A DNA stretch of 64,000 nt from Minisyncoccota bacterium (GTDB lineage Bacteria > Patescibacteriota > Minisyncoccia > Phycocordibacterales > UBA2100), in contig DATDWX010000033.1 of assembly GCA_036517335.1 (NCBI GenBank), positions 9 to 64,008 on the forward strand, given 5' to 3'. The notes under the pieces were generated by a model that worked only from the letters and a program-made list of their open reading frames with translations, searched no databases and was not told the DNA's origin. The stretch's first letter is position 1. Every line of letters starts with the position of its first letter. A program made the translations under genes and the position numbers. Below, piece after piece: positions 3,506 through 58,385 of this stretch.

Positions 3506-5386
3506 ATGAAAGTTTCTCGCAATTGGCTCCAACGTTTCTTCAATGAAGAACTTCCGAGTGCGGCAGCCCTCGCCGAAGCGCTCACTTTTCATGCGTTTGA
3601 GATCGAAAGTGTCGAGGCACTGTCAAAGGGGAGTCCTCGAGCTGTAAGAGGGGAGTCCTCTGACAACGGTAATGATTGGATACTTGATGTAAAGGTCACG
3701 CCCAATCGCGGGCATGATTGCCTCTCGCACCACGGAATTGCCAAGGAGTTTTCTGCCATCTTGCAATTACCGATGAAAAGCGATCCACTGCGGGAGGAAG
3801 TTTCTCTTAAGCCGCGATATAGCGATATATCGCTACATATTGAAAATGCGAATCTGTGCCCGAGGTTCGTAGCCGCATATATTGCAAGTATCAAAGTCGG
3901 CCCGTCACCCGAATGGCTTCGCAAACACCTTGAATCCATCGGACAGAAATCGGTCAACAACGTTGTCGACGCGACTAATTTCGTCATGTTCGATCTCGGC
4001 CAACCCCTCCATGCCTTTGATGCTGGCAAACTTCATAAGAAAGACAATGTGTATTCATTGATCATTAGACCTGCAAAAAGAGGAGAGACCGTTACCGGTT
4101 TGGATGACAAAACATATGCGCTAAACGAGACAATGCTTGCCATCGTTGACGGGGTCGCATCGATCGTCGCGAGTATTGCGGGCATAAAGGGCGGGAAGCC
4201 AACAGGAATAGACGAGACGACGACGGACATTATTCTCGAAGGGGCGAATTGGAATGGGGCGAATATCCGGAAAACGTCGCAAGCACTCAAGCTTCGCACC
4301 GATGCGTCATCGCGATTCGAGCAGGTGATCTCGCCGGAGCTCGCTCCATACGGCGTGCGAGCATGCGCGGATCTTATCTGTGAGATCGCAGGTGGGGAAG
4401 TCGTTGGTTTCGTCGACGAGTACCCTAATAAACAGCAGCAAACAAGCATATCGGTCGATGCAGGGCGCATCAATGCTATTCTCGGCTCGAAACTCTCCGA
4501 TGCTGAAGTTGGGGGTGCGCTCACGCGCCTCGATTTGCCTTTTACCAAATCAGGCGACGCGTTCGTGATCGAACCTCCCTTTGAGCGGCTCGATCTTACT
4601 GTCCCCGAAGATATTGCCGAGGAAGTGGGTCGCATCACAGGGTACGACAAAATTCCGCCTGTTGAGTTGCCGCCCATGTCAACCAAACCTGAAGTCAATC
4701 CGAATTTTTATGCTGCCGAGCGTGCGCGTGAGGAGTACGTCGCGAAGGGCTACTCGGAAGTCTACACATCAATATTTGCCGACGACGGCGAACGTGTCAT
4801 CGCCAACAAGGTGGACGGCGTCCGGCCGTATTTACGAACAAATCTCGATATTGGTCTTGGAATTGCACTAGAGAGAAATGTCCGCAACAAAGATCTTCTA
4901 GGGCTTAAACAAGTGAAATTGTTTGAAATAGGAACTGTATGGAAAGATAATAAAGAAACAATCGTTTTTAACAGTTATTGCGAAACACCCACCAATAAAG
5001 ATAGCGTTGTGTCGGGCGAGCGATCAGGAGATAAACCGTTGACAGATTACATTTCTGAAATTCTAAAACAGTATGATGAATTGCCGCTGTCAGAAACAAA
5101 GCGCTATGTCCCGTTTTCTAAGTATCCATTCATTGTGCGCGATATTGCATTGTGGGTTTCTGCAGGTACGAAAGAAGACGATGTGCTTGAAATAATCCGC
5201 ACTCATGCGGGCGAATTGCTCGTCCTCAGCGAATTGTTTGACACGTTCAAGAAGGGCGAGCGCACCTCACTCGCCTTCCGACTCGTCTTCCAGTCCTTCG
5301 ACCGCACGCTTACCGATTTCGATGCAAATGAGCGGATGGCGAGTATTTCAAGTGCACTAAAAGCAAAAGGATTTGAGATTCGATGA
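3506..5386 (+). CDS. pheT: Phenylalanine--tRNA ligase beta subunit (short, 626 aa)
   Basis: Starts MKVSRNWLQRFF 3 nt after the pheS stop. B3/4, B5 and FDX-ACB-like C-terminus. Confidence 0.85.
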   Translation: MKVSRNWLQRFFNEELPSAAALAEALTFHAFEIESVEALSKGSPRAVRGESSDNGNDWILDVKVTPNRGHDCLSHHGIAKEFSAILQLPMKSDPLREEVSLKPRYSDISLHIENANLCPRFVAAYIASIKVGPSPEWLRKHLESIGQKSVNNVVDATNFVMFDLGQPLHAFDAGKLHKKDNVYSLIIRPAKRGETVTGLDDKTYALNETMLAIVDGVASIVASIAGIKGGKPTGIDETTTDIILEGANWNGANIRKTSQALKLRTDASSRFEQVISPELAPYGVRACADLICEIAGGEVVGFVDEYPNKQQQTSISVDAGRINAILGSKLSDAEVGGALTRLDLPFTKSGDAFVIEPPFERLDLTVPEDIAEEVGRITGYDKIPPVELPPMSTKPEVNPNFYAAERAREEYVAKGYSEVYTSIFADDGERVIANKVDGVRPYLRTNLDIGLGIALERNVRNKDLLGLKQVKLFEIGTVWKDNKETIVFNSYCETPTNKDSVVSGERSGDKPLTDYISEILKQYDELPLSETKRYVPFSKYPFIVRDIALWVSAGTKEDDVLEIIRTHAGELLVLSELFDTFKKGERTSLAFRLVFQSFDRTLTDFDANERMASISSALKAKGFEIR

Positions 5387-5485: not shown

Positions 5486-7525
5486 ATGGCAGACAAAAAA
5501 AAGAAGAAGGCGGGTTCATACAACGCCGCGGACATCACCGTCCTCGAGGGATTGGAGGCGGTACGGAGGAGGCCGGGGATGTACATCGGCACGACCGACA
5601 CGTCGGGCTTGCATCATCTTGTCTGGGAAGTATTCGACAATTCGCGCGACGAGGCGATGGGTGGTTTTGCAAACGACATCGAAGTGGCGCTCCTTCCCGA
5701 CGGCTCGGTGCGCGTCGCCGACAATGGTCGCGGCATTCCAGTAGACGTCCATTCGAAAACAAAAGTCTCCGCGCTCGAAACGGTAATGACAAAATTGCAC
5801 GCCGGTGGCAAATTCGGTGGTGAAGGCTACAAGGTATCCGGCGGCTTGCACGGCGTGGGTGTCTCGGTCGTCAATGCGCTTTCGGATGCGGTGCGTGCGG
5901 AAGTGCATCGTGATGGCGGCGCATACGTGCAGGAATATAAAAATGGTGGCACGCCCGTGAGTAAGATCAAAAGAATGGGCTCGTCGGATCTGCACGGCAC
6001 CATCATCCGCTTTCGCCCCGATTCTTCGGTCTTTCCGGAACGCACATTCAATTGGGAGACGATCGTGGCACATATGCGCCAGCAAGCGTACCTCGTGCGC
6101 GGTTTGAGGATCTCTATCCTCGATCTGCGGCAGGTGCCCAAAGTCGACGTAGAGGACGCGTTCTATGTTCGTGAGCTGGGCATCGAAGCTCCCTCGGTGA
6201 GCTTTTATTTCGAGGGTGGTCTCCGCAGTCTCGTGGCGTTCCAGAATCGTCATCAGGAGCCCATCCACAAAACTATTTTTTACGTGGAGAAGGAAGAAGA
6301 CAACGTGCAGGTGGAGATAGCACTGCAGTATGTAGACGACATCAACGCGCGTCTTTCCGCTTTTGCAAATAATATCTACACTGCCGAAGGCGGTATGCAT
6401 GTGACCGGTTTCAAGGGCGCTCTCACCCGTTCGCTGAACGCACAAATAAAGAACGGTGGTGGCAAGGAGAGCGAGAGTTTTACCGGCGACGACTGCCTGG
6501 AGGGGATGACGGCGGTCATTTCGGTAAAGCTGCGTGAGATCCAATTTGAGGGACAAACGAAAGCCAAGCTCGGCTCGGTAGAGGCGCGCGCCGCGACGGA
6601 GGCGGTGTTTGGGGAAGCATTCAGCGCTTTTCTCGAAGAGCATCCTGACGAAGCCCGGGCAATCATCGCGAAAGTAAGCTTGGCCATGAAGGCGCGCAAG
6701 GCAGCCAAGGCCGCTAAGGATTCGATCCTGCGCAAAGGCGCCCTAGACGGCATGACACTGCCGGGCAAACTTGCCGACTGCCAAACGAAATCAGCAGAGG
6801 AATCCGAGCTGTTTATCGTCGAGGGGGATTCCGCCGGTGGCACTGCCAAAGCAGGTCGCGATCGCCGTACACAGGCGATATTGCCGCTGCGCGGAAAGAT
6901 CCTCAACATCGAGCGGGCGCGACTCGACAAAATGCTCGCCTCCGAGCAGATACGAAATCTTGTGGTCGCTCTCGGGACAGCGATAGGGGATATTTTTGAC
7001 ATTTCCAAATTGCGGTATCACAAGATCATTATCGCCACCGATGCCGACGTGGACGGCGCGCACATCCGCACGCTGCTCCTTACGCTTTTATTCCGACACT
7101 TCCGTCCGGTCATTGACGGCGGCTTTCTCTACATTGCGCAGCCGCCGCTCTACAAGATCAGAAAGGGGAAGGAAGTCGCGTATGCATACAGCGAGGCCGA
7201 AAAGGTTGGCATTGCGGGGAAAGATACCCCGATTGAAGAAGAAACATCGGGGCAAGGGGAGCCAGAGATTCAAGAGGCGACGCCTCTTGAATCTGGGAAA
7301 CGAACTCCAAAAATTTCGGTACAACGCTACAAAGGTCTGGGTGAGATGAATGCCGAGGAATTGTGGGAGACAACGATGGATCCGGCCAAACGCGTGCTTA
7401 TGCAAGTCACCATCCTCGATGCCCAAGAGGCCGACCAGGTCTTCGATATGCTCATGGGCACCGACGTCCCAGCCCGCAAGTCATTCATCCAGTCTCACGC
7501 GCGCGAAGCGACGCTGGATATTTAG
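5486..7525 (+). CDS. gyrB: DNA gyrase subunit B
   Basis: MADKKKK..YNAADITVLEGLEAVRRRPGMYIG, the GHKL ATPase, a TOPRIM (EGDSAGG) and QRYKGLGEM. Confidence 0.95.
   Translation: MADKKKKKAGSYNAADITVLEGLEAVRRRPGMYIGTTDTSGLHHLVWEVFDNSRDEAMGGFANDIEVALLPDGSVRVADNGRGIPVDVHSKTKVSALETVMTKLHAGGKFGGEGYKVSGGLHGVGVSVVNALSDAVRAEVHRDGGAYVQEYKNGGTPVSKIKRMGSSDLHGTIIRFRPDSSVFPERTFNWETIVAHMRQQAYLVRGLRISILDLRQVPKVDVEDAFYVRELGIEAPSVSFYFEGGLRSLVAFQNRHQEPIHKTIFYVEKEEDNVQVEIALQYVDDINARLSAFANNIYTAEGGMHVTGFKGALTRSLNAQIKNGGGKESESFTGDDCLEGMTAVISVKLREIQFEGQTKAKLGSVEARAATEAVFGEAFSAFLEEHPDEARAIIAKVSLAMKARKAAKAAKDSILRKGALDGMTLPGKLADCQTKSAEESELFIVEGDSAGGTAKAGRDRRTQAILPLRGKILNIERARLDKMLASEQIRNLVVALGTAIGDIFDISKLRYHKIIIATDADVDGAHIRTLLLTLLFRHFRPVIDGGFLYIAQPPLYKIRKGKEVAYAYSEAEKVGIAGKDTPIEEETSGQGEPEIQEATPLESGKRTPKISVQRYKGLGEMNAEELWETTMDPAKRVLMQVTILDAQEADQVFDMLMGTDVPARKSFIQSHAREATLDI
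7267..7293. repeat. 27-bp perfect palindrome GATTCAAGAGGCGACGCCTCTTGAATC lying in frame in gyrB (encodes IQEATPLES)
   Basis: Exact palindrome. It sits in the variable loop before QRYKGLGEM, which is about 25 aa longer than in the B. subtilis GyrB. Confidence 0.8.
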
Positions 7526-18453: not shown

Positions 18454-21400
18454 TTACAGTGCTTTCGCTCGCTCTACGACAAAGCTGGGCTCGCCGTTTC
18501 TTTCAGAAATTCTGCCTTTCAGCATGACGCAGGTGCCGGGGGCGAGGAGGGCTTCGTGTTCTTTTAAGATGCGGGGAAACGCGACGGCTTCGATGCCACC
18601 GGAGAGGTCGGCGAGTTTGAGGAAGAGCATACGCTCGCCGTTTTTCGTTAGGATATACTGCACGCTTTCGATGAATCCGGCGATGACCGTCTCGACGCCG
18701 CGCAGATTTTCTTTGGCATGCTGGATGGTTGTTTTCTGATTCGCCAATTTTTCTTTGTGCTTATCGAGCGGGTGACCGGAAATATAGAGGCCGAGCAATT
18801 CCTTTTCCCACACCAACCGTTGATCCATCGTCGCCGGAGGTGCGGGCGGCAACTTCAGCGCCGCAGGCGCTGAAGTTGCCGCTCCGAACAAAGAACCCTG
18901 ATCGGTCGGCGCCTTCATGTGTTCGCGATGATAGGTGAGGAGCAGTTCAACGTTGGCAAAAAGCGCTCCGCGCTCTCCCAGATCATCTAATGCACCACAT
19001 TGGATCAGCGCCTCAAGGGACTTCTTGTTCAAGTTCTTATCGGGGATACGGGAGATAAAGTCGGCAATATCTTTGAACGCGCCGCCCGACTCTCTGGCGG
19101 CAATGATCGAATCCCCCACTCCTGTGCCGAAATTTTTGATGGAGTAAAGACCAAAGCGGATATTCGTCTGATCTACCACAGTAAACACGCCACCACTCTC
19201 ATTGACTGAAGGCGGCCACACGTGGATACCCATTCGTTTGCATTCCGCGACCGCTTCAGCGATTTTTTCCACGTCGCCGGCGTCAGCTGTTAGCACCGCA
19301 GCCATATAGTCCACAGGGAAGTTGGCCTTCATGTACGCCGTTTTGTACGCGAGCGAGCCGTAAGAAGCCGCATGGGCTTTGTTGAATCCGTATGCAGCGA
19401 ATGTCTCTATTTGCTCCCATAATTTTTTTGCTGCATCTGGCTTCATGCCGTTATGTATACAGCCAGTAGTAAAACGCTCTTTCTGTGCCGCCATTTCTTT
19501 CGGCACTTTCTTTCCCATTGCTTTGCGGAATTTGTCGGCCTCGCCCCATGAGTACCCTGCGAGCTGCACAGCTATCATCATCACGTCGTCCTGATAAATG
19601 AGGACGCCATACGTAGGCTTCAAGATTTCCTCCAGACGCGGATCGAGATAGCGCACGCGTGCTGGATTTTTCTTGCGCTCAATGTATTCAGGGATGAAGG
19701 CCATGGGGCCTGGCCGGTAGAGAGCGACCATCGCATTCAAGTCATGGATGACGGTCGGCTTTAGCTCTTTGAGATACGACGTCATACCGCCACCCGCCAT
19801 TTGAAAGACGCCGAGGGTTTCGCCGCGGGTGAGCATCTCGTACACTTTCCCATCGTCGAGCGGAATGCGATCGAGATCCACTTCTTGCCCGAGCCGCGCG
19901 CTCACGCGCGCGACGGAGTCGGCGAGGACCGACAGGTTGGTGAGTCCGAGGAAGTCGAATTTGAGAAGGCCCACGCCGCCATATTCGTCGGCGATAGAGT
20001 ACATGTCGTACTGGGTGATCATTTTGCCACCTTTCGGGTCCATTTGGATCGGCGAGTAGTTGACCACAGGCTCCGGCGCGAGGATCACACCCGCCGCGTG
20101 CACACCGACATGCCGCGCGTTGCCCTCTATCTTTTGCGCAAAGTCAATAATTTCTCGCGCGTCGGGATCATTCTCATACACTTGTTTGAGTTCTGGCACG
20201 CTCTCTAGTGATCCCGCAATAGAGACAGGGAAGCCCTGCTTGCCGAAGGGGATCATTTTGGCCAGAGAATCGCCCTTGCCGTAGGAGTGCCCGAGTGCTC
20301 GCGAGACATCCCGCACTGCAGCGCGCGCCATCATCGTGCCGAACGTGCCGATCTGTACCACTTTGTTCTCGCCGTACTTTTCTCGCGCGTACTCTATTAG
20401 TTCGTCGCGGCGAAAGGCGTCGATATCCATGTCGATATCCGGCGCGCTCGGCCTCTCGGGATTGAGGAAGCGCTCGAAGGGCATGTTGAACTCGAGGGGA
20501 TTGACGCTCGTGATGCCGCAGAGATAGGAGACCAAGGAGCCAGCTGCGGAGCCGCGCGTATTAGTGAAAATGCCTCTCCCCCGTGCCCACGCGAGGAGAT
20601 CAGCGACGATGAGGAAGTACGATGCGTAGCCCTTTTGCCTGATAATGTCGAGTTCATAATTGACCCGCGCCCACATCTCGTGCGATTCCGTGAGTTCGCG
20701 CTCTTTGATGCCGCGCTCAGTGAGCACTCGCAGCTCATGATCGTCCGTGGACCCTGGGGGAATGGGGAAGTTGGGAAAAATGACCTTGCCCAGCGTGAGC
20801 TTGAGGTCGCAGAGATCGGTGATTTTTTGTGCATTTTCGAGCGCCTCGGGCGTGTCGGCGAAAAGTTCAGCAGCGCGTTCGCTTGTAATGAATGAAAAAT
20901 CCGGGCCACTGCCCGCCGATTCACGATCAAGCGTACCCCCCGTGCGTATCTTGATGACGAGCTCGCGCGCGGCCGCGTCCTCTTTCTGCATATAGTAAAC
21001 GTCGTGCGCCGCCACCAATTCGACAAGCTCATGGCGAGCTAGTGTGACAATACGGCGCATCTTTTCCTCGTGTCCTTCGACTTCCGGGTGGTGGGTGATT
21101 TCGATGAAATATTTTTCTCCATACAATTTTTTGTACCACGCCAGGATTTCTTTCGCACGTTCGACATTCCCGTCCGCCAAAGCGCGGGCATGCTCACCCG
21201 AAAAGCTGGGCAGTATCGCAATCAATCCATCGCGGTGTTGCTCCATCAATTCCCTATCAATGCGCGGGCGATAATAAAATCCTTCGAGATACGATTTTGA
21301 TACGAGCTGGAGAAGATTGTGATACCCCGCCTCATTCGCCGCGAGCAACACAAGCCGCGAGTGTCTATCGTCCACCCGGTGCTCTTTATCGCGCCGCGTG

Positions 21401-21722: not shown

Positions 21723-22337
21723 ATGGAACAGATGAAATACCTCATCGGCATCGACGAGGCGGGGCGGGGGCCTTTGGCTGGGCCGGTTGCCGTGGGGGCG
21801 GTTGTTGTTCCTCGGAATTTTGATTGGAAGCTCGTCGCTGGTGCCAAGGATTCCAAGCAGATGACCCCGGCGGGGCGGGAGAGCTTGTACTCCACGATGA
21901 GCGAATTGCGCAAGGAGGGAAAACTCGATTTTGTCGTTGCATTTTCCTACCCAGCCATGATTGATCGGCAGGGCATTGTTCCGGCGATCCAAAGCGCCCT
22001 CAACCGAGCCCTGAGCAAAATTCAAGAGGCGTCGCCTCTTGAATGCGAGGTGCGGCTCGACGGGAATCTCAAGGCTCCCTCCGAGTTCGTTCATCAAACC
22101 ACTATCATCCGCGGCGACGAGTCGGAGTCTGTCATTTCCCTAGCCTCGATCGCTGCCAAGGTGGAGCGTGATCTCCTGATGGCGCGGCTTGCTACGAAGT
22201 ATCCGGCGTACAGATTTGAAAAACACAAGGGGTACGGCACCGCAGAGCACAGGCGGAACATCCGGGAGTTTGGGCTCTGCAAAATTCACCGGGCCACATT
22301 TTGCACACGTTTGCTTCTTGGCTCAAATGCAGTATAA
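21723..22337 (+). CDS. rnhB: Ribonuclease HII
   Basis: IGIDEAGRGPLAGPV, DSKQ, the LDGN..., KGY motifs. Confidence 0.85.
   Translation: MEQMKYLIGIDEAGRGPLAGPVAVGAVVVPRNFDWKLVAGAKDSKQMTPAGRESLYSTMSELRKEGKLDFVVAFSYPAMIDRQGIVPAIQSALNRALSKIQEASPLECEVRLDGNLKAPSEFVHQTTIIRGDESESVISLASIAAKVERDLLMARLATKYPAYRFEKHKGYGTAEHRRNIREFGLCKIHRATFCTRLLLGSNAV
22020..22044. repeat. 25-bp perfect palindrome ATTCAAGAGGCGTCGCCTCTTGAAT in frame in rnhB (encodes KIQEASPLE)
   Basis: Exact palindrome. Same family and same coding phase as the gyrB and tsaD copies. Confidence 0.8.
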
Positions 22338-28783: not shown

Positions 28784-28814
28784 GCGAAACGAAGAGGTTG
28801 CTTCTTCGTTTCGC
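28784..28814 (+). terminator. Hairpin (gcgaaacgaaga ggttgc tcttcgtttcgc), a possible terminator lacking a U-tract
   Basis: 12-bp perfect stem downstream of the trmD duplicate. Confidence 0.35.
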
Positions 28815-36642: not shown

Positions 36643-36673
36643 AATATTAGTGGTTTACGAAACCACTAATATT
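36643..36673. repeat. REP-like 31-bp palindrome AATATTAGTGGTTTACGAAACCACTAATATT overlapping the RAYT1 stop codon
   Basis: 14-bp perfect arms. Copy 1 of 3 of this family. Confidence 0.75.
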
Positions 36674-37328
36674 CCAGGCGGTACTCCTTGAGAGAGCTTG
36701 CTTGGTTGGATCGCAAGAATGACGAGATTTCTTTTTTGTAGTCCTTAAAGACGTCGGAGAAGAGTTCGGTTGTCAGAATTGATGGAAAATTGTGTGTCCC
36801 CGTGTAGTCGAGGTAGCTGCTCCACTTATATTTTTCAAGAGTTTGCAATGCAGCTGTAGCACTCTGCAAACCATGTTGCCGCCATTCCTTGCCGCCGCGA
36901 GAAAAGTCGAGTGGATTACTATGAATGTAATTGAGAATGTGCAAAAAATGTGCGTCGGTATGGATGTGAACCTTCTTGCTGCGTCCCTGAAAAAGCGTGC
37001 CTTGCCGTTTATATCGCTCGTTAAAGTAATTGGCATATCCCACGTTCAGGCGACGAATAAACTTTGTAAGGCCGCCGTCTATCCGTTCAGATATGAGAAG
37101 GTGATAGTGATTTCCCATAAGACACCATGCATGCAGATCAACGATCCGCTCCTTTGCCATATAGTGGTTTCGTAAACCACTAATATCAGACGCGCGATGC
37201 CAAACATTTTTTGCGTCTTCAACGTCATTGAATTCCCACATGTCGTGTACGAACCGGGCCCTGTCCTTGTCATCAAGGAATAATGATCGCTTATCAACGC
37301 CGCGATTCAAAACGTGGTACAGCTCCAT
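36666..37328 (-). CDS. REP-associated tyrosine transposase (RAYT) / IS200-like HUH-Y1 transposase, copy 1
   Basis: HUH motif (AWCLMGNHYHLLI) and a Y1 motif (LNYIHSNPL; compare YIYINPV in E. coli RayT). 220 aa, flanked by REP-like palindromes. Confidence 0.8.
   Translation of the reverse strand: MELYHVLNRGVDKRSLFLDDKDRARFVHDMWEFNDVEDAKNVWHRASDISGLRNHYMAKERIVDLHAWCLMGNHYHLLISERIDGGLTKFIRRLNVGYANYFNERYKRQGTLFQGRSKKVHIHTDAHFLHILNYIHSNPLDFSRGGKEWRQHGLQSATAALQTLEKYKWSSYLDYTGTHNFPSILTTELFSDVFKDYKKEISSFLRSNQASSLKEYRLEY
37159..37186. repeat. REP-like palindrome (ATATAGTGGTTTCGTAAACCACTAATAT) inside the RAYT1 coding sequence (encodes DISGLRNHY)
   Basis: Same arms as the flanking copies with a complementary centre. 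Confidence 0.7.
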
Positions 37329-37337
37329 ACCATCATT

Positions 37338-37369
37338 ATATATTAGTGGTTTACGAAACCCCTAATATT
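37338..37369. repeat. REP-like palindrome ATATATTAGTGGTTTACGAAACCCCTAATATT immediately upstream of the RAYT1 start
   Basis: One mismatch relative to copy 1. Confidence 0.7.
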
Positions 37370-37518: not shown

Positions 37519-39300
37519 ATGTCAGATACTGTGCAGCAAATTAAGGATAGGTTGTCTATTACGGATGTGGTCAGCCAGTACGTGAAATTGGAACGAGCGG
37601 GCTCGACACTCCGCGCCCGTTGCCCTTTCCACGCCGAGAAAACACCCTCCTTTTTCGTCTCGCCCGAACGCGGCACCTACCACTGCTTCGGTTGCAATGT
37701 GGGCGGCGACATATTCTCGTTCGTCGAGCAGATCGAGGGACTGGATTTTAAAGGGGCGCTGAAGATTCTTGCAGAAAAAGCCGGCGTGGAGATCGTGTAC
37801 CGGGGCAAGGGTGAGTCTCGGGAGGGCAGGGATGAACGCGACCGATTATTTGCGCTTATGGAAACGGCCGCGATCTTTTATGCGTCGCGCTTGAGCGACG
37901 GGGCGCGGAGTTATTTACAGGGACGCGGCGTCGAAGACGCCACCGTACACGCTTTTCGTATTGGCTGGGCAGGCAATGAGTGGAGCGAGGCGTCGGATTA
38001 TCTGAAAGGCAAAAGGTTTACCGACAAAGAAATGATTGACGCCGGTATTGCAAAGAAAAACGAACGTGGCAACCTGACCGACAAATTCCGCAACCGCATC
38101 ATGTTTCCTATTGCGGATTCAGCCGGGCGCGTGGTGGCTTTTTCTGGTAGAATTTTTGGTGAGCACGCCTCTCCCGAGGCACCCAAATATTTGAATAGCC
38201 CCGAGACGCAGCTGTATCACAAATCCCGGATACTCTACGCATTCGACCGCGCCAAAATGGCTATCCGCAAGGCTGCTTGCGCGGTCTTGGTGGAAGGACA
38301 GATGGATCTCATTATGAGTCACCAAGCAGGATGGACCAACACCGTTGCCGTTTCGGGTACCGCCTTCACGCAGGAGCACGCAGCGCTTATTCGGCGGATG
38401 ACGGATAATCTCGTGCTTGCCCTCGACGCTGATCAGGCGGGTATAAAAGCAGCGGGTCGCGCTGCCCGGGTGGCCCTGCAGGGCGGACTCAATGTGAAAG
38501 TAGCCCAGTTGCCCGAGAATATGGACCCCGCCGACCTCATCGCGAAGCGCGGCATTGATGCGTGGAAAACAGCAATTCGTGAGGCTAAAGACATCATCAC
38601 CTTTTTGCTTGATGTGCTCGAGAAGCACCTGCCTGCGCAGGCAGGTGCCCAGCACAGCGACCGATTTCGCCGTGCGGTGGAGACGGTCGTACTGCCGTTT
38701 GTGGTGGATGTGGGAAGCCCGATTGCGCGTGAGCAGTATATGCGGCAAATCGCAGGGCGCCTCGGCGTCTCGGAGAGCGCAGTCGCAGAGGCGCTGAAGC
38801 GCGTGCCGACCGAGTCTCTCACGACAGGCACCAAGGGAATGGTGGCACCGCCTGAAAGTGGGACAACCACACTGAAGGGTCTCGATAGGGTACAGCCCTC
38901 CTTCGCCAAAGGTTTCGAGAGGACGCGGCATGGATATGCCTTGCTCCTTCTGCAAACTTCGATGCCAAAACCGGACATTGATATTGTGCAATACGCGCGA
39001 GAGCTTGAGGTCGCAATAGGCAAAGAGGCATTCAAAGCTCTCGAAGCCTTGAGCGAATCCGAAAAGGAAGTCCTTCGTTTTTCTGCCGAACGCTTGTACA
39101 GTGCGAGCAAGAATGTAGTGCGTGACGCCCATGAGCTCGTGAAGATCCTCCACGAGGAACGATTGCGGCGCGAACTTGCCGAAGTGGTCAAACTGCAGCA
39201 AAAGGCCGAACGCGCAGGTGGCAAGGCCGAACTGGCCACGCTGGAGAAGCGATCGAAGGTGTTGATAGCCAAGATTGCACAATTGCACGGAAAGGGATAG
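37519..39300 (+). CDS. dnaG: DNA primase
   Basis: Zn-ribbon CPFHAEKTPSF...CFGC and a TOPRIM (VEGQMD, DADQAG). Confidence 0.9.
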   Translation: MSDTVQQIKDRLSITDVVSQYVKLERAGSTLRARCPFHAEKTPSFFVSPERGTYHCFGCNVGGDIFSFVEQIEGLDFKGALKILAEKAGVEIVYRGKGESREGRDERDRLFALMETAAIFYASRLSDGARSYLQGRGVEDATVHAFRIGWAGNEWSEASDYLKGKRFTDKEMIDAGIAKKNERGNLTDKFRNRIMFPIADSAGRVVAFSGRIFGEHASPEAPKYLNSPETQLYHKSRILYAFDRAKMAIRKAACAVLVEGQMDLIMSHQAGWTNTVAVSGTAFTQEHAALIRRMTDNLVLALDADQAGIKAAGRAARVALQGGLNVKVAQLPENMDPADLIAKRGIDAWKTAIREAKDIITFLLDVLEKHLPAQAGAQHSDRFRRAVETVVLPFVVDVGSPIAREQYMRQIAGRLGVSESAVAEALKRVPTESLTTGTKGMVAPPESGTTTLKGLDRVQPSFAKGFERTRHGYALLLLQTSMPKPDIDIVQYARELEVAIGKEAFKALEALSESEKEVLRFSAERLYSASKNVVRDAHELVKILHEERLRRELAEVVKLQQKAERAGGKAELATLEKRSKVLIAKIAQLHGKG

Positions 39301-46183: not shown

Positions 46184-47038
46184 ATGGCGAGGAAAAAAAC
46201 GGCATTGCCCATAACCCACTGGAGCTACTCCTCGTTAATGTCTTATTTGCGCAATCCTTTGGCTTGGTACAAGCGCTACGTAGAGCACGTGTACGACACG
46301 CCTTCGTCGCCCGCGGGTATCATTGGCCGGGCGGGGCATGTGGCCTTGCAACATTTCTACAGCGGGATAGCGAAGGAGGGCGCGATTGATCTAGGATTGG
46401 AATATTTGCGCAGCGTGCCGGACTTTGAGATCAATTTTGGCAAGCTAAAGTCCCTGCCTGCCGGCAGGCAGGGTGCCGCGCAAAGGAGAAAGCGCCAGCT
46501 GATGGGACGCGAATACCTGCAGGCGGTCGCTTTCTACTTGGAGAAGCCGCCACGCTACGATGTCTTGGGCGTGGAGGTCAGGGCCGACGCACTAGTACAA
46601 GGATTGCCCCTGCCGATACGTGCGGTATCCGATCTCGTCGTGCGGTCAAAGGGGGAGCGGGATGCGCTTGATGTCGTAGATCACAAATTTGTGGATTCTT
46701 TCAGCGCGCTCGGCGCTGGCAAGACGCTCTTCGTCATCCAAGCCATCTTCAACTACTACACCGTCTCACAGATGTACGATAGACCTGTACGCCGCTTCAT
46801 TCTGCAGGAGTGCAAAAAAAGAAAAAACGCCGACGGCTCACCCCAAATGCGCAAATATGTAATCAACTTCGACGAACGAGCCGAAGATTTCGCCCTCTTC
46901 CACCGTTTAATCAAGGAAACAACGGCCGATCTCGCAAAGCGACAACACTTCCTCCCCAATCCATCTGATATGTTCGAAGGCGAGAATTCCTTTGATATTT
47001 ATCGGCTTGGATTGACTGGTAAAAATCACACGTTATAA
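46184..47038 (+). CDS. PD-(D/E)XK nuclease superfamily protein (RecB/Cas4-like N-terminus, no Cys cluster)
   Basis: N-terminal HWSYSSLMSYLRNPLAWYKRYV and a D...D-x-K-like motif (ALDVVDHKF). Confidence 0.5.
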   Translation: MARKKTALPITHWSYSSLMSYLRNPLAWYKRYVEHVYDTPSSPAGIIGRAGHVALQHFYSGIAKEGAIDLGLEYLRSVPDFEINFGKLKSLPAGRQGAAQRRKRQLMGREYLQAVAFYLEKPPRYDVLGVEVRADALVQGLPLPIRAVSDLVVRSKGERDALDVVDHKFVDSFSALGAGKTLFVIQAIFNYYTVSQMYDRPVRRFILQECKKRKNADGSPQMRKYVINFDERAEDFALFHRLIKETTADLAKRQHFLPNPSDMFEGENSFDIYRLGLTGKNHTL

Positions 47039-51673: not shown

Positions 51674-51707
51674 CGACATTTAACGTCTTGGGTTATTGGA
51701 AAAATAA

Positions 51708-51744
51708 TGAAAGACATCGGATGTTGGACATCCGATGTCTTTCA
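51708..51744. repeat. REP-like palindrome TGAAAGACATCGGATG-ttgga-CATCCGATGTCTTTCA upstream of RAYT2
   Basis: 16-bp perfect arms. Shares the GACATCCGATGTC core with 52426-52452. Confidence 0.7.
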
Positions 51745-51759
51745 TGGTATCATTGGGGT

Positions 51760-52422
51760 ATGGATCTGTACCACATTTGCAATCGGGGTGTCGATAAGCG
51801 AGAGGTGTTTCTTGATGATGGCGATCGCACACGATTCGTTCATGACCTGTATGTAATGAACGATGTGCATTCGGTGCCGAATCACGGCCGTCATGAGCTA
51901 GGCAACATATCAGATGCAGGACACGAACGAGAGCCACTTGTTCATTTGTACGCATGGTGTCTCATGCCCAACCATTACCACCTACTCCTGTCCCCGGTCG
52001 ACGATGAGCCCGCGAATCTGTCTTTGTTTGCGCAGAAAGTGGGCATGGGCTACTCGAAGTTTTTCAATAAAAAATACAAACGATCCGGTGCCCTTTGGCA
52101 GGGGAAACATAAAAAGGTGCATATACAACGAGACGCTCATTTCCTCTATATTCCGTTCTATATCCATCTTAATCCTCTCGACCTATCGATTCCGGAATGG
52201 CGTCACGGGCGGGTGAAGGATGTGGACAAGGCCTTGGAACAACTAAGCGGCTATCGCTGGAGCAGTTTTCTCGACTATACTGGAGTAAAAAATTTCCCGT
52301 CCCTTATCGACAAACCTCTGCTTACAGATATGCTCGGTTCGCGCAAGAAACAAAGCAAGATAATAGCGGATATCATCGGCGACGGAATATTGGCAAATTC
52401 CAGCTGGGCATTAGAGATGTAG
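51760..52422 (+). CDS. REP-associated tyrosine transposase (RAYT) / IS200-like HUH-Y1 transposase, copy 2
   Basis: AWCLMPNHYHLLL (HUH) and FYIHLNPLD (Y1). 220 aa, a paralogue of 36666-37328. Confidence 0.8.
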   Translation: MDLYHICNRGVDKREVFLDDGDRTRFVHDLYVMNDVHSVPNHGRHELGNISDAGHEREPLVHLYAWCLMPNHYHLLLSPVDDEPANLSLFAQKVGMGYSKFFNKKYKRSGALWQGKHKKVHIQRDAHFLYIPFYIHLNPLDLSIPEWRHGRVKDVDKALEQLSGYRWSSFLDYTGVKNFPSLIDKPLLTDMLGSRKKQSKIIADIIGDGILANSSWALEM

Positions 52423-52425
52423 AAC

Positions 52426-52452
52426 AATGAGGGACATCCGATGTCCTTCATT
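52426..52452. repeat. REP-like palindrome AATGAGGGACATCCGATGTCCTTCATT immediately downstream of RAYT2
   Basis: 13-bp arms with one mismatch. Confidence 0.65.
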
Positions 52453-52464
52453 GGTAAAGGATTG

Positions 52465-54024: not shown

Positions 54025-56148
54025 TTATTGCACAGTTGGCCATTTTGCGACCATCAGCAATCCACACTCTTTCTCCGGCAGCTCTTGCCAGATCGCTTCG
54101 GTGACGAAGGGCATGAAGGGGTGGAGGAGTTTTAGAATTACAATCAGCGATTGATATAATGCAACTGCACGGGACTGAACCGTCTCGGGATTGTTTAAGA
54201 TGGACTTGCTTTCTTCTATGACCTGGCTCGCGAAATAATCCCAAACATATGGGTATAAAATGCCGATTGCCATGTCGAATCGATATTTTTCAATCTGCGC
54301 AGTAACTTCCGCGGCCTTTTGATAAGCCTCGTCTACAATTTGTTTGTCTTGTCCTCTAAGTTCTACTTCTGAAGAAACATAATGATCAAGAATAAATCGC
54401 GTTATATTCCATAATTTGTTTGCGAACTTTTTGTAGGCGATAGTTTTTCTTGTATCAAGATTGAGATCGGTGCCTGGCGTGTTGCCCACGATGAGCCCCA
54501 TGCGCAATGCATCGGTACCGAATTCTTTCGATACCTCCAGAGGAGAAATAACGTTGCCCCTTGATTTGCTCATCTTTTGTCCTTTTGCATCTCGCACGAG
54601 ACCGTGGAGGTAGACGTGTTTGAACGGAACCTCGCCCGTGACATAGAGGCCGAGCATGATCATGCGCGCCACCCAGAAAAAGAGAATGTCGGCGCCCGTT
54701 TCCATCACACTTGTCGGATAGAATGCTTTGAAATCTTCACCGTCTGGCCAACTCAGCGTGATGAATGGCCACTGACCCGATGAGAACCACGTGTCGAAGG
54801 TGTCGGGGTCCTTGGTCCAGCCATCGCCGGGAGAATTTTCTTGGATCTTCCACTCATCGTTTTTTTGCCATGCAGGGATAGGTATACCCCAGACGATCTG
54901 GCGCGAAATGTTCCAGTCTTGGATGTTCTCTAGCCAGTGCAACAATATTTTCTCGTGCGACTCGGTGAGTATCTTGACACCGCCCTCTTTGACCGCTGCT
55001 ATCGCCCGCTCGGCAAGCGGCTGCATTTTGACGAACCACTGCGCCTTCACCTGCGGCTCTATTTCGCGAGCGCATTTATAGCACACGGGCACCTCGTGCT
55101 CGTATTTTTCGTCGATTTTTACCAAAAGTCCCTTCTGTTCCAAATTCGCGACGATTTTTTCTCGCGCCTCTTTGATATTCATTCCGGCAAATTCGCCAGC
55201 TATGGGGAGTAGCTTCCCGCGCCAGTCAATGATTTGTTCAAACGGAAGATTGTGCCGCTGCGCTATCTCAAAATCAATTGGATCGTGCCAGGGCGTGATC
55301 GTCATAACGCCGCTTCCGAGCTCCATGTCGATAGCCTCATCCTTGACCACGGTCGCGGTAATTTTCCCGTTGATCCATTCCACCTCGAATTGCTGGCCTT
55401 CTTTGTACTCCGCGTAGCGCTCGTCCGCCGGATGCATCACGACGTATTTGTCGCCGAACTTAGTCTCCGGTCGTGCGGTCGCGATGACGAACGGGCCGTA
55501 TTGGAGGTAGTAGAATTTGTCGGTACGCGTCTGTCGCTCGGTCTCGAGATTCGAAAGTGAGGTCTGATGCTTGGGGCACCAATTGACGATGCGGGAGCCT
55601 CGGTAGAGAAGCCCATCATCCGAAAGTTTTTGAAATGTTGCATACACTGTCTTGACCACACGTTCATCAAGTGTGAAAAGTTCGCGCGACCAATCACACG
55701 AAGCGCCGAGCGCTCGCAGCTGGCCTCCCATAAACGATTTATTTTCTAGCGTGAAGGTCAATATTTCCTTGTATAGTTCCTCCGGTTCCATGTCGAAGCG
55801 CGAACGGCCCTCTTTTTCAAGCTTTTTTTCGTACACCACCTGCGTCTCGAATCCCGCATGATCCGCACCCGGAAGCCATAGCGCCTTCTTGCCACGCATG
55901 CGCTGGTAGCGAATCATAATGTCTTCTAGTGTCACGAAAAGTGCGTGGCCGGCATGCAAAGAACCATTCGCATTGGGCGGCGGCATTATGATCGTGAATG
56001 GTTCACGATCACCCTGAGCGGAGTCGAAGGGTTGTACCTTGTCGGGGTTAAAGTAGCCGCTGCGCTCCCAGCGGGTGTATACCGCGCTTTCGTGGTCGGC
56101 TGGATTATATGGCTTGAGAAAAATCTCGGGGGCTTTAGATGGCTCCAT
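54025..56148 (-). CDS. valS: Valine--tRNA ligase (compact, 707 aa)
   Basis: PPPNANGSLHAGHA (HIGH), KMSKS, WLPGADHAGFETQ. Confidence 0.85.
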   Translation of the reverse strand: MEPSKAPEIFLKPYNPADHESAVYTRWERSGYFNPDKVQPFDSAQGDREPFTIIMPPPNANGSLHAGHALFVTLEDIMIRYQRMRGKKALWLPGADHAGFETQVVYEKKLEKEGRSRFDMEPEELYKEILTFTLENKSFMGGQLRALGASCDWSRELFTLDERVVKTVYATFQKLSDDGLLYRGSRIVNWCPKHQTSLSNLETERQTRTDKFYYLQYGPFVIATARPETKFGDKYVVMHPADERYAEYKEGQQFEVEWINGKITATVVKDEAIDMELGSGVMTITPWHDPIDFEIAQRHNLPFEQIIDWRGKLLPIAGEFAGMNIKEAREKIVANLEQKGLLVKIDEKYEHEVPVCYKCAREIEPQVKAQWFVKMQPLAERAIAAVKEGGVKILTESHEKILLHWLENIQDWNISRQIVWGIPIPAWQKNDEWKIQENSPGDGWTKDPDTFDTWFSSGQWPFITLSWPDGEDFKAFYPTSVMETGADILFFWVARMIMLGLYVTGEVPFKHVYLHGLVRDAKGQKMSKSRGNVISPLEVSKEFGTDALRMGLIVGNTPGTDLNLDTRKTIAYKKFANKLWNITRFILDHYVSSEVELRGQDKQIVDEAYQKAAEVTAQIEKYRFDMAIGILYPYVWDYFASQVIEESKSILNNPETVQSRAVALYQSLIVILKLLHPFMPFVTEAIWQELPEKECGLLMVAKWPTVQ

Positions 56149-57182: not shown

Positions 57183-58385
57183 TTACACGTTTGCCAGCCT
57201 TAAATTCCCACTGGCGCGAAGAGATGCCGGATCGGCGAATTCTTTTTTGAGAGCGTGGAAATAGCCGGCTAGCGCGATCATGAGGGCGTTGTCGGTGGCC
57301 CATTCGGGTGCGGGGATGAGGAGTTGGACATCCTGTTCATCGAGTGCTTCTTTGAGCCGTTGTTTGATATGCGTGTTGGCCGAGACGCCGCCGCCAACTA
57401 AGACCGTTTGTGCGCCATGTTCCTCCACGGCTCGCAGGGTTTTCGCGACGAGCACGTCGGCGGCGGCGTCTTCAAATTCGCGCGCGATTTCTATTTTCTT
57501 TGCATACGTGAGCGTTCGACCGCCGATCACATTGCGCACTGCTGTTTTCAATCCCGAGAATGAAAAGTCGTAAGATTCATCCTTCATCATCGGCCGCGGC
57601 AATTCAAGAGGCGACACCTCTTGAATCTGACGCGAGCGAGAGGCAAGCCGTGCGATCTCCGGCCCGCCAGGATAGGGAAGTCCCATCATCCGCGCAATTT
57701 TATCAAACGCTTCGCCCACCGCATCGTCGCGCGTCTCACCAATCGTTTTAAACTTTGGCCATTCAGTAATCAAATCCAATTCCGTGTGCCCACCCGAGAT
57801 GAGTAGCGCAATGGCGGGGAATCCGGACTCGTCGATTCTTAATCCCGATACTTCGTTATATAACGAAGTATCGGGATTTGAGACTATCGCCATGGCAATA
57901 TGACCCTCCAGGTGGTTCACAGGTACGATCGGAATATTCCATACTGCGCTCAGCGCTTTTGCAAAATTTACCCCGACCCACAGCGCGGGCTCAAGGCCGG
58001 GGCCGTGCGTCACCGCGATCGCATCAATATCAGGCCTCCCATGTGTTTTTAAAAATTCTTCGAGCGCCTGAAAAAGTTCCGGTTCTCGCACCAGCAATTC
58101 CCGGATGTTCAAGGACCGTCCTTGAACCAATTGGATCAAGGACGGTCCTTGAACAGCTTGAGCGGACTGTGCGAGTACTTCACTTAGAAGCGGGACGAGA
58201 TTTTTTGCATGCTCGCGCTTGGCGAGATTGGGAAAGATGCCGCCGTAGGGGGCATGAGTCGCGATTTGTGAGTGGAGTGCGTTGCCCAGCACTTGAAATT
58301 TGAACGATGCGCCAAATGATCCTTCGGCCTCGATCAAACAAACAGCGGTTTCATCGCACGAGGTCTCTATCCCTAAAATCTTCAT
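57183..58385 (-). CDS. tsaD: tRNA N6-adenosine threonylcarbamoyltransferase TsaD (400 aa, about 55 aa longer than typical)
   Basis: MKILGIETSCDETAV, HLEGHI, GGVSAN. Carries two in-frame palindromic insertions. Confidence 0.85.
   Translation of the reverse strand: MKILGIETSCDETAVCLIEAEGSFGASFKFQVLGNALHSQIATHAPYGGIFPNLAKREHAKNLVPLLSEVLAQSAQAVQGPSLIQLVQGRSLNIRELLVREPELFQALEEFLKTHGRPDIDAIAVTHGPGLEPALWVGVNFAKALSAVWNIPIVPVNHLEGHIAMAIVSNPDTSLYNEVSGLRIDESGFPAIALLISGGHTELDLITEWPKFKTIGETRDDAVGEAFDKIARMMGLPYPGGPEIARLASRSRQIQEVSPLELPRPMMKDESYDFSFSGLKTAVRNVIGGRTLTYAKKIEIAREFEDAAADVLVAKTLRAVEEHGAQTVLVGGGVSANTHIKQRLKEALDEQDVQLLIPAPEWATDNALMIALAGYFHALKKEFADPASLRASGNLRLANV
57602..57626. repeat. Palindrome ATTCAAGAGGCGACACCTCTTGAAT in frame in tsaD (encodes QIQEVSPLE on the minus strand)
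   Basis: 10-bp arms. Same family and phase as the gyrB and rnhB copies. Confidence 0.75.
58107..58154. repeat. 48-bp compound palindrome GTTCAAGGACCGTCCTTGAAC-CAATTG-GATCAAGGACGGTCCTTGAAC in frame in tsaD
   Basis: Two 21-bp palindromes in inverted orientation around CAATTG. Encodes VQGPSLIQLVQGRSLNI. Confidence 0.75.

Follow-up and report, generated by a model that had tools for sequence, protein, structure and literature searches.

Most work on repetitive extragenic palindromic (REP) sequences and the REP-associated tyrosine transposases (RAYTs) has dealt with Proteobacteria, in which the repeats lie outside genes. Two REPs in inverted orientation that together form a hairpin are known as a REPIN (PMC3116915). 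Intragenic REPs occur as singles and dimers that encode 20-30 aa, often in replication/repair genes (PMC3733652). This report concerns a 50-bp compound palindrome within the tsaD gene of a 64-kb stretch of contig DATDWX010000033.1 (the whole stretch is called the window below), the dispersed hairpin family to which its two halves belong, and the RAYT-like genes of that family. The host is a Kaiserbacteria-like bacterium of the candidate phyla radiation (CPR; Patescibacteria), whose protein records are labelled Candidatus Paceibacterota or Kaiserbacteria; the hairpin/transposase system belongs to a lineage of tiny groundwater bacteria. No earlier description of this system was found in the literature on in-frame palindromes in CPR or on RAYTs in Patescibacteria.

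The tsaD doublet matches the definition of a REPIN (PMC3116915) and the close intragenic REP dimers (PMC3733652). It is best explained as a REPIN-like pair of REP-like hairpins of a RAYT-associated type, which lies inside a gene, where a permissive loop of the TsaD protein tolerates it (probability roughly 0.7). Coordinates of all features are given in Table 1.

The compound palindrome and its host gene

On the plus strand, positions 58107-58154 read GTTCAAGGACCGTCCTTGAAC CAATTG GATCAAGGACGGTCCTTGAAC, and 46 of the 48 positions agree with the reverse complement of the same 48-mer. This confirms a preliminary description of the DNA, made from the sequence alone, which had recognized two 21-bp palindromes inverted around CAATTG. 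One added base per side yields a 50-bp palindrome with 25-bp arms and a single mismatched pair. The centre base is C in the first copy and G in the second, which shows that the copies are inverted relative to each other and not in tandem; the off-palindrome base of the second copy gives GATCAAGG in place of GTTCAAGG. With up to three mismatches allowed, the 21-mer was found in the window only at 58107 and 58134, against 0.00 sites expected from 100 dinucleotide shuffles. The 72 nt around the element were predicted to fold as RNA into a single long hairpin of -42.4 kcal/mol (z = -9.1), the folding check that the preliminary description had proposed, and as DNA reached -24.8 kcal/mol (z = -8.1); in both cases 0 of 200 shuffles were as good. 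An Rfam scan of the whole window and of seven hairpin-bearing loci gave no family at the gathering score, and without Rfam matches in the window no tRNA, rRNA or riboswitch was detected there.

The element lies in frame in a minus-strand open reading frame (ORF) that matches NCBIfam TIGR03723 with 341.9 bits (cutoff 296.1) and is thus TsaD, as had been supposed; it encodes residues 78-93, VQGPSLIQLVQGRSLN. The proposed inserted segment is borne out by structures, as residues 76-117 align with only three residues of E. coli TsaD (4wq5/4ydu) and otherwise have no counterpart in solved TsaD proteins. Relative to the E. coli protein, the second and third palindrome sites of the gene appear as gaps of 14 and 4 residues. 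An excess length of about 55 aa had also been noted. The excess itself stands, at about 57-65 aa over solved homologues, but the doublet accounts for only 16 aa of it; a helical insert found throughout the lineage and the two other palindromes of the gene supply the remainder. Conservation of the peptide in orthologues lacking the palindrome had been named as an argument against an inserted element: VQGPSLIQLVQGRSLN was found in no TsaD orthologue outside the same species-level cluster, to which the doublet is restricted among the orthologues compared. A protein identical to the TsaD of the window is present on 8 contigs from NCBI, JGI and ENA sources.

In an alignment of 33 TsaD orthologues, hypervariable insertion sites fall at residues ~70-95, 165-180 and 253-262 (hot spots 1 to 3). 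The AlphaFold2 model of TsaD has a mean predicted local distance difference test (pLDDT) score of 87.7, and its weakest blocks besides the C-terminal tail, residues 71-90, 171-180 and 251-260, are the three palindrome sites. Eight orthologue DNAs were fetched, and every one carries palindromes at one or more of these sites, with families varying: CCCCGAGGTTCAACCTCGGGG and GACATCCGATGTTGGACATCCGATGTC at hot spot 1, TATTCCAATGTTCTTAAGAACATTGGAATA at hot spot 2, and palindromes of 42 and 47 bp at hot spot 3. L-numbers are used below for fetched loci (metagenome or orthologue) and P-numbers for proteins. The hairpin family of the doublet recurs at hot spot 1 in L211 as a single copy, CAATGTCAAGGACCGTCCTTGACATTG, in the frame QGPSL, and in L212 as a 31-bp palindrome after a partial inverted copy, in the frame SRTVLE. 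Frames, spacers and flanks differ between L211 and L212, which argues that the two copies arrived independently. Another family, ACATC-S-GATGT, is found at hot spot 1 of L081, at hot spot 2 of L211 and at one of the transposase-like genes of the window (RAYT-B, see below).

At hot spot 2, the 13 codons spanning the 38-bp palindrome are the same as in the orthologue L083 at 39 of 39 nt, whereas outside these codons the two tsaD genes share 66% identity, and 41% at third codon positions. In L081 and L085 this palindrome has two substitutions that compensate each other (CCCGAT..ATCGGG to CCCAAT..ATTGGG), and a related palindrome is retained in Harrisonbacteria (L035). Perfect hairpins with arms of at least 9 bp number 1.38 per tsaD gene in Kaiserbacteria, 0.47 in other CPR, where arms reach 17 bp, and 0.08 in the 61 non-CPR bacteria among the matches listed; the control set consists of genome contigs matched by TsaD alignment, mostly non-CPR, likewise among the matches listed.

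Close relatives of the window TsaD differ in an allelic manner. P0003, P0006, P0008 and the window protein together display all four combinations of two hot spot 1 alleles (the doublet or a KSSHSAKASKDKQEPNPEQIPNS insert) and two hot spot 3 alleles (IQEVSPLEL or a ~40-aa NNAEHTRNDADEIPR...KSASSPHE insert). This mosaic indicates either strain recombination or chimeric assemblies. The TsaD insert is most likely neutral passenger sequence.

The dispersed hairpin family and its RAYT-like genes

The unit pattern TTCAAGGACNGTCCTTGAA was scanned in public metagenome contigs and found on at least 119 of them; 146 matches are among those listed, one of which is the window copy. At least 94 distinct contexts contain the unit hairpin TTCAAGGAC-N-GTCCTTGAA, and among the matches listed there are up to 3 copies per contig and contig GC contents from 0.34 to 0.56. 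Lack of any other copies, which had been held out as an argument against a repeat element, therefore applies to the rest of the window and not to the metagenomes. In 2.9 million viral contigs the pattern TTCAAGGACNGTCCTTGAA had 0 matches, as had the 27-bp family described below, giving no hint of a phage vector; these zero counts double as a chance control for the hairpin patterns. The dominant form among the matches listed is the 25-bp palindrome ACC-TTCAAGGAC-W-GTCCTTGAA-GGT; the family consensus is ACC-TTCAAGGAC-N-GTCCTTGAA-GGT, and the C/G-centred subtype of the window is GTTCAAGGACSGTCCTTGAAC. In a position-frequency table of 89 oriented contexts, information beyond the 19-mer is present only at the symmetric A-C-C/G-G-T. 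Nothing is conserved past these bases, and the unit is therefore the hairpin alone; no direct repeats flank it in the same table.

Among the matches listed, 42 of the 94 contexts (~45%) lie inside open frames of at least 150 aa, and the copies within ORFs use only the two frames that avoid the TGA of the hairpin, reading LQGxSLK or PSRTVLE. Host genes confirmed by PDB matches are DHFR, GatA and PurD, while RecG, HisRS, SecA, CysRS and UvrC were recognized by eye from ORF translations. In DHFR, the hairpin lengthens the protein by 5 residues relative to solved homologues. The centre bases are flipped between otherwise identical contexts (L105 versus L115, L117 versus L181), which shows that arm-to-arm copying or inversion takes place at these hairpins. 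Within all fetched DNA, 8 hairpin pairs are spaced within 90 bp, at 18-76 bp, and 7 of the 8 are inverted. Other compound palindromes stand upstream of RAYT-B, upstream of the RAYT-like gene of L156 and at hot spot 3 of L081; these repeats thus take the palindrome-of-palindromes form repeatedly.

Two further occurrences of the unit were recorded. In L140 (3780-3920, 5190-5320), L105, L115, L102 and L126, the TTCAAGGAC hairpin is part of a conserved leader of ~100 nt that precedes small paralogous genes (MSKQTTTLSSTDLDNF..., MTPNKRSLTQADVDF...) with no function assigned, which adjoin toxin-antitoxin genes and an IS110-like gene; no Rfam family matched there. An exact match to the 19-mer in L189 (~6609; Ser/Thr kinase, GC 0.34) is translated as FQGQSLK in MEY-FQGQSLK-DLL, presumably a form of a conserved kinase motif. 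That match is probably chance or native and not an insertion, so that not every match would be an element.

The hairpin family is dispersed in CPR genomes and physically tied to a CPR-wide clade of Y1 (HuH) transposases whose nearest characterised relatives are the RAYTs. Among the matches listed, 40 of 145 hairpin copies lie in a RAYT-like ORF or within 60 bp of one, and these ORFs make up 2.1% of the sequence. Thirteen RAYT-like genes have a typical layout, with a cognate hairpin 5-30 nt before the ATG, another inside the gene, and a third at or after the stop codon; all three are present in 7 of the 13. The internal copy is in frame and precedes the HuH motif; diverged homologues with other hairpins have theirs at the same place in the protein. 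This placement hints at possible self-regulation or cis-targeting. Five hairpin families co-vary with the RAYT-like protein across the 13 genes. Those with TTCAAGGAC-family hairpins include the genes of L111, L156, L098, L117, L106, L203 and L095, among others. The gene of L111 matches the tsaD doublet directly. Its internal hairpin GATCAAGGACGGTCCTTGATC and its downstream hairpin TTGTTCAAGGACGGTCCTTGAACAATT are the two variants that make up the doublet, and a flank is similar too: hairpin copy 1 is identical to the downstream hairpin, the GATCAAGGACGGTCCTTGATC form of copy 2 is the internal one, and the CAATTG spacer is similar to the AACAATTCGG flank.

In the L117 (~2418-2440) and L106 (~4173-4197) genes a second, degenerate hairpin is read in the third frame as TFKDSPC; its TGA is changed to TGC or TGT and the gene stays open. 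In L203, the TGA of an intact hairpin is the stop codon of the RAYT-like gene.

The RAYT-like proteins score 33-43 bits against Pfam PF01797 (Y1_Tnp; cutoff 23), and NH(F/Y)H and Y.H.NP are invariant in their alignment. Their top or only NCBIfam match is REP_Tyr_transpos (NF047646). The best PDB match of their profile is E. coli TnpA-REP (4er8, E = 7e-4), with the HuH and Y..NP motifs aligned, followed by ISDra2 TnpA; searches of single sequences against PDB sequences gave nothing meaningful, and the profile alone reached 4er8. At E <= 1e-10 the family numbers at least 4707 proteins, and the named sources are nearly all CPR lineages.

Two such genes, here called RAYT-A and RAYT-B, lie in the window itself; the preliminary description had made no link to genes of this kind. 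RAYT-A is above the Pfam Y1_Tnp threshold, and its sole NCBIfam match is the REP-associated tyrosine transposase. Three copies of a hairpin ATATTAGTGGTTT-CGT/ACG-AAACCACTAATAT are found at the gene. Its orthologue in another Kaiserbacteria genome has the same dnaG-rpoC position, which fits a vertically inherited single locus. RAYT-B was detected by a hidden Markov model built from five RAYT-like proteins (E = 5e-53).

Table 1. Palindromes, host genes and RAYT-like genes in the 64-kb window
Feature	Position	Strand	Sequence or motif	Remarks
Whole compound palindrome	58106..58155			Inverted doublet of REP-like hairpin; encodes TsaD residues ~77-94
Hairpin copy 1	58107..58127		GTTCAAGGAC-C-GTCCTTGAAC	Perfect 10-1-10 palindrome
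Spacer	58128..58133		CAATTG	Itself palindromic; centre of the compound element
Hairpin copy 2	58134..58154		GATCAAGGAC-G-GTCCTTGAAC	Inverted centre, one off-palindrome base
tsaD host gene	57183..58385	-		400 aa; palindrome loops at residues ~77-94, 170-182, 254-262
tsaD hot spot 2 palindrome	57841..57878		NPDTSLYNEVSGL	38-bp, perfect; hairpin family differs from that of the doublet
tsaD hot spot 3 palindrome	57602..57626		IQEVSPLEL (encoded)	25-bp; member of the 27-bp family
27-bp family copy	7266..7294		AGATTCAAGAGGCGACGCCTCTTGAATCT	Inside gyrB
27-bp family copy	22020..22044			Inside RNase HII gene
RAYT-A	36666..37328	-	NHYHLL, YIHSNP	Y1 (HuH) transposase-like; between rpoC and dnaG
RAYT-A upstream hairpin	37340..37368		ATATTAGGGGTTTCGTAAACCACTAATAT	12 nt before ATG
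RAYT-A internal hairpin	37162..37182		ISGLRNHY (encoded)	In frame; loop inverted
RAYT-A 3' hairpin	36643..36673			Stop codon is the TAG within the hairpin
RAYT-B	51761..52421	+	NHYHLL, YIHLNP	Y1 transposase-like
RAYT-B upstream compound hairpin	51707..51745		ATGAAAG[ACATCGGATGT]TGG[ACATCCGATGT]CTTTCAT	Palindrome of palindromes, 16 nt upstream
RAYT-B downstream hairpin	52425..52453			Simple single form, directly past the stop codon
Perfect palindrome	18846-18882			Within dnaE
Perfect palindrome	28784-28814			Within ORF of unassigned function
Perfect palindrome	38625-38648			Within dnaG
Perfect palindrome	46452-46473			Within PD-(D/E)XK nuclease gene
Perfect palindrome	55989-56011			Within valS

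Fourteen perfect hairpins with arms of at least 10 bp lie in the window, against ~0.4 expected, and 12 of them are in an open frame of at least 120 aa. With spurious ORFs included, hairpin density is ~2-fold above that of non-CPR loci; global density was set aside as too weak an argument. The 27-bp family ATTCAAGAGGCG-N-CGCCTCTTGAAT has three copies in the window, each of them in frame: one in gyrB, one in the RNase HII gene and one at hot spot 3 of tsaD. It has no copy in the fetched loci or viral contigs, and no transposase associated with it was found. The doublet unit is a repeat element related to this family and distinct from it, as the preliminary description had suggested; its other suggestion, a target duplication, is not upheld, because no direct repeats flank the element and the TTCAAG/CTTGAA ends are part of the hairpin stems. 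The dnaG and nuclease palindromes have a common core, CCTGCCTGC/GCAGGCAGG. Together with those in dnaE, valS and at 28784-28814, they lie mostly in replication/repair genes, like the bias reported for intragenic REPs (PMC3733652). A DNA-uptake sequence or parS-like site was dropped as a candidate since there is no dominant motif in the window and the families vary between close relatives. Enrichment of the HIP1-like GCGATCGC was not significant, with 8 observed, 3.9 expected and 8 reached in 6 of 100 shuffles.

Origin of the doublet and alternatives

The repeat family, its in-frame use, its placement at Y1 genes, the co-variation of hairpin and protein and the hot-spot behaviour of tsaD are established; movement of the hairpins by transposition is an inference. 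In the scheme favoured here, a RAYT-like enzyme would recognize single-stranded hairpin DNA and copy or move the hairpin. Crude ORF tiling covers ~94% of the window; in a genome this densely coding, the copies that survive would be those in short spacers or in tolerant loops, in a stop-free frame and without a frameshift. The second, inverted copy could have arisen from a second insertion beside the first or from fold-back (template-switch) copying around CAATTG. Either route would give a REPIN-like unit that can fold as one hairpin with a 25-bp stem.

Several observations weigh against this explanation. No excision or insertion event has been observed, and only two copies of the hairpin of the doublet are present within the window. 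A cognate RAYT-like gene of its subtype is absent from the same 64 kb, where RAYT-A and RAYT-B are flanked by hairpins unlike those of the doublet. The binomial P for the proximity of hairpins and RAYT-like ORFs among the matches listed, ~1e-32, is inflated by partly redundant metagenome contigs. The RAYT-like proteins reach 38-45 bits against the 80-bit cutoff of the equivalog NF047646; such scores place them in a distant sister clade and not among canonical RAYTs. No GTAG/CGTC tag or other asymmetric guide sequence stands beside the hairpin in the 89 oriented contexts. Singles are far commoner than doublets, with 8 doublets among ~94 contexts, unlike Pseudomonas REPINs, although a sample chosen by exact match to one unit makes this a weak test. 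Finally, the copies in GatA, PurD and tsaD hot spot 3 leave protein length unchanged, whereas simple insertion predicts otherwise.

A more far-reaching interpretation is tentative: the CPR may hold a distinct, very large RAYT-like Y1 clade that writes or homogenizes cognate hairpins in coding DNA. It is possible, if doubtful, that a hairpin-directed, sequence-specific activity inserts the hairpins at recurring surface loops of TsaD, GyrB, DnaE, DnaG and aminoacyl-tRNA synthetases and keeps them identical there, so that they would be more than tolerated junk. Hairpins of this kind might outconserve their host genes and sometimes replace native sequence at unchanged length, a suggestion to be taken with equal reserve.

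A purely local origin, in which replication template switching at a quasi-palindrome made and perfected the palindrome in place and no mobile or enzyme-associated repeat was involved, is considered unlikely. It would account for a doublet whose halves are exactly inverted about a short centre that is itself a palindrome, for the flipped centre bases of L105/L115 and L117/L181, for arms that are perfectly Watson-Crick with no G-U tolerance, and for the length-neutral copies in GatA and PurD; homogenization and extension of inverted repeats by template switching is described in PMC8604942 and PMC8794818. What it leaves unexplained is a 19-25-bp sequence common to at least 94 unrelated contexts, the placement of hairpins around Y1 genes, and the presence of one family at one loop in two reading frames. 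Template switching is plausible as a sub-step that produced the second copy.

The hairpin could also be a functional cis-element kept for the host, for example as a tsaD mRNA structure acting on translation rate or stability, or as the site of a dimeric DNA-binding protein. Variation of families at a given loop between close orthologues, with none in some of them, makes this improbable, as do the restriction of the doublet to one species-level cluster, the scatter of the same hairpin, at no shared position, over many genes and spacers unrelated to one another, and the lack of a matching Rfam family in the window and the seven loci. In its favour can be counted the very stable RNA hairpin (-42 kcal/mol), hairpins that outconserve their host genes (the 39 of 39 nt at the 38-bp palindrome codons, against 66% elsewhere in the gene), the persistence of palindromes, with compensatory changes, at shared tsaD loops across a range from Kaiserbacteria to Harrisonbacteria, and the fixed position of the internal copy in RAYT-like genes.

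Selection of the 16 extra residues for TsaD function, with an incidental DNA palindrome, is very improbable: an essential gene does retain the insert in frame, but the encoded peptide is not conserved among orthologues, the same DNA is read in two frames in other genes, the segment has low model confidence, and a selected peptide would gather synonymous changes that break the palindrome. An artefact of assembly or amplification, for instance an inverted chimera, is extremely improbable, for although some such errors yield palindromes, the identical protein is on 8 contigs from three sources, the reading frame is intact, and independent assemblies have related hairpins at that loop.

The findings suggest that in ultra-compact CPR genomes (~94% coding here) a related hairpin/Y1 partnership survives in tolerant loops of essential proteins. 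Hairpin insertions would account in part for why CPR proteins vary so puzzlingly in length and have "hypervariable inserts", and peptides encoded by palindromes are not homologous residues, a caveat for annotation and phylogenomics of CPR. The five matched enzyme-hairpin pairs are open to testing of single-strand DNA recognition and insertion, and the internal in-frame hairpin of the transposase gene is a candidate for autoregulation. These internal cognate hairpins deserve pursuit above all, together with how extremely the hairpins are conserved.

Comparison with described systems

The IS200/IS605 elements share with the system the fold family with HuH motif and catalytic tyrosine (Pfam Y1_Tnp) and the recognition of DNA hairpins. 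They have two different imperfect end hairpins and the transposase gene moves along, whereas the CPR hairpins are a single perfect palindrome dispersed without the gene. The coding palindromes of Nematomorpha mitochondria (PMC6649704) and the inverted repeats perfected by template switching (PMC8794818, PMC8604942) are, like the CPR hairpins, perfect inverted repeats within reading frames, which arm-to-arm copying likely keeps perfect. In contrast to the CPR hairpins, both cases are locus-specific and come with no dispersed family and no transposase.

The Rickettsia palindromic elements (RPEs) reside in Alphaproteobacteria, and RPE-4 and RPE-6 alone are among the CGTC-tagged REPs. RPE-1 is about 100-150 bp long. 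Like the CPR hairpins, RPEs are palindromic repeats in frame in functional protein-coding genes, and RPE-1 differs as a longer palindromic insertion (PMC3733652). The unit of the doublet is 21-25 bp, has no CGTC tag, belongs to a CPR host and departs from the RPE consensus, so that the likeness is one of behaviour only. For CGTC repeats no dedicated transposase is known, unlike the CPR hairpins.

The REPIN-RAYT system (Bertels & Rainey 2011, PMC3116915) is alike in its inverted REP pair within one long hairpin, in compensatory changes, and in a single-copy Y1 gene flanked by cognate REPs, RAYT-A being apparently inherited vertically at a syntenic locus. The tsaD pair is 46/48 self-complementary with a single fold, as expected of a REPIN. 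REPINs of Pseudomonas are extragenic, have spacings of 71 or 110 bp and show more doublets than singlets (PMC3116915), whereas the tsaD doublet has a 6-bp spacer and is intragenic, and singles dominate the sample; doublets are not over-represented here, by what is a weak test on an exact-match sample. The REPtron arrangement, a RAYT gene flanked by cognate repeats, is seen in metagenome loci and, for the subtype of the doublet, not in the window. The RAYT-like proteins have the HuH motif and catalytic tyrosine of RAYTs and stay below the NF047646 cutoff.

Also close are the intragenic REPs of Di Nocera et al. 2013 (PMC3733652), which are stem-loop singles and close inverted dimers in frame in known proteins. 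Their hosts are often replication/repair and tRNA-related genes, comparable to gyrB, dnaE, dnaG, the RNase HII gene, valS and tsaD here, and the GTAG type is associated with RAYT genes. As a short (20-40 bp) dispersed stem-loop, the unit resembles a REP, with 21-25 bp on at least 119 contigs. It departs from the extragenic location, intragenic REPs being a described minority (PMC3733652), and it lacks a terminal GTAG/CGTC or a guide sequence 5' of the hairpin foot. Compared with the intragenic REPs, the CPR (Patescibacteria) hairpin has perfect stems and a 1-nt centre, intragenic copies are common (~45% of contexts among the matches listed), and the transposase gene itself holds an internal in-frame copy. 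Intragenic REP dimers are thus already known in other bacteria; what is new is the CPR lineage and the tag-less hairpin.

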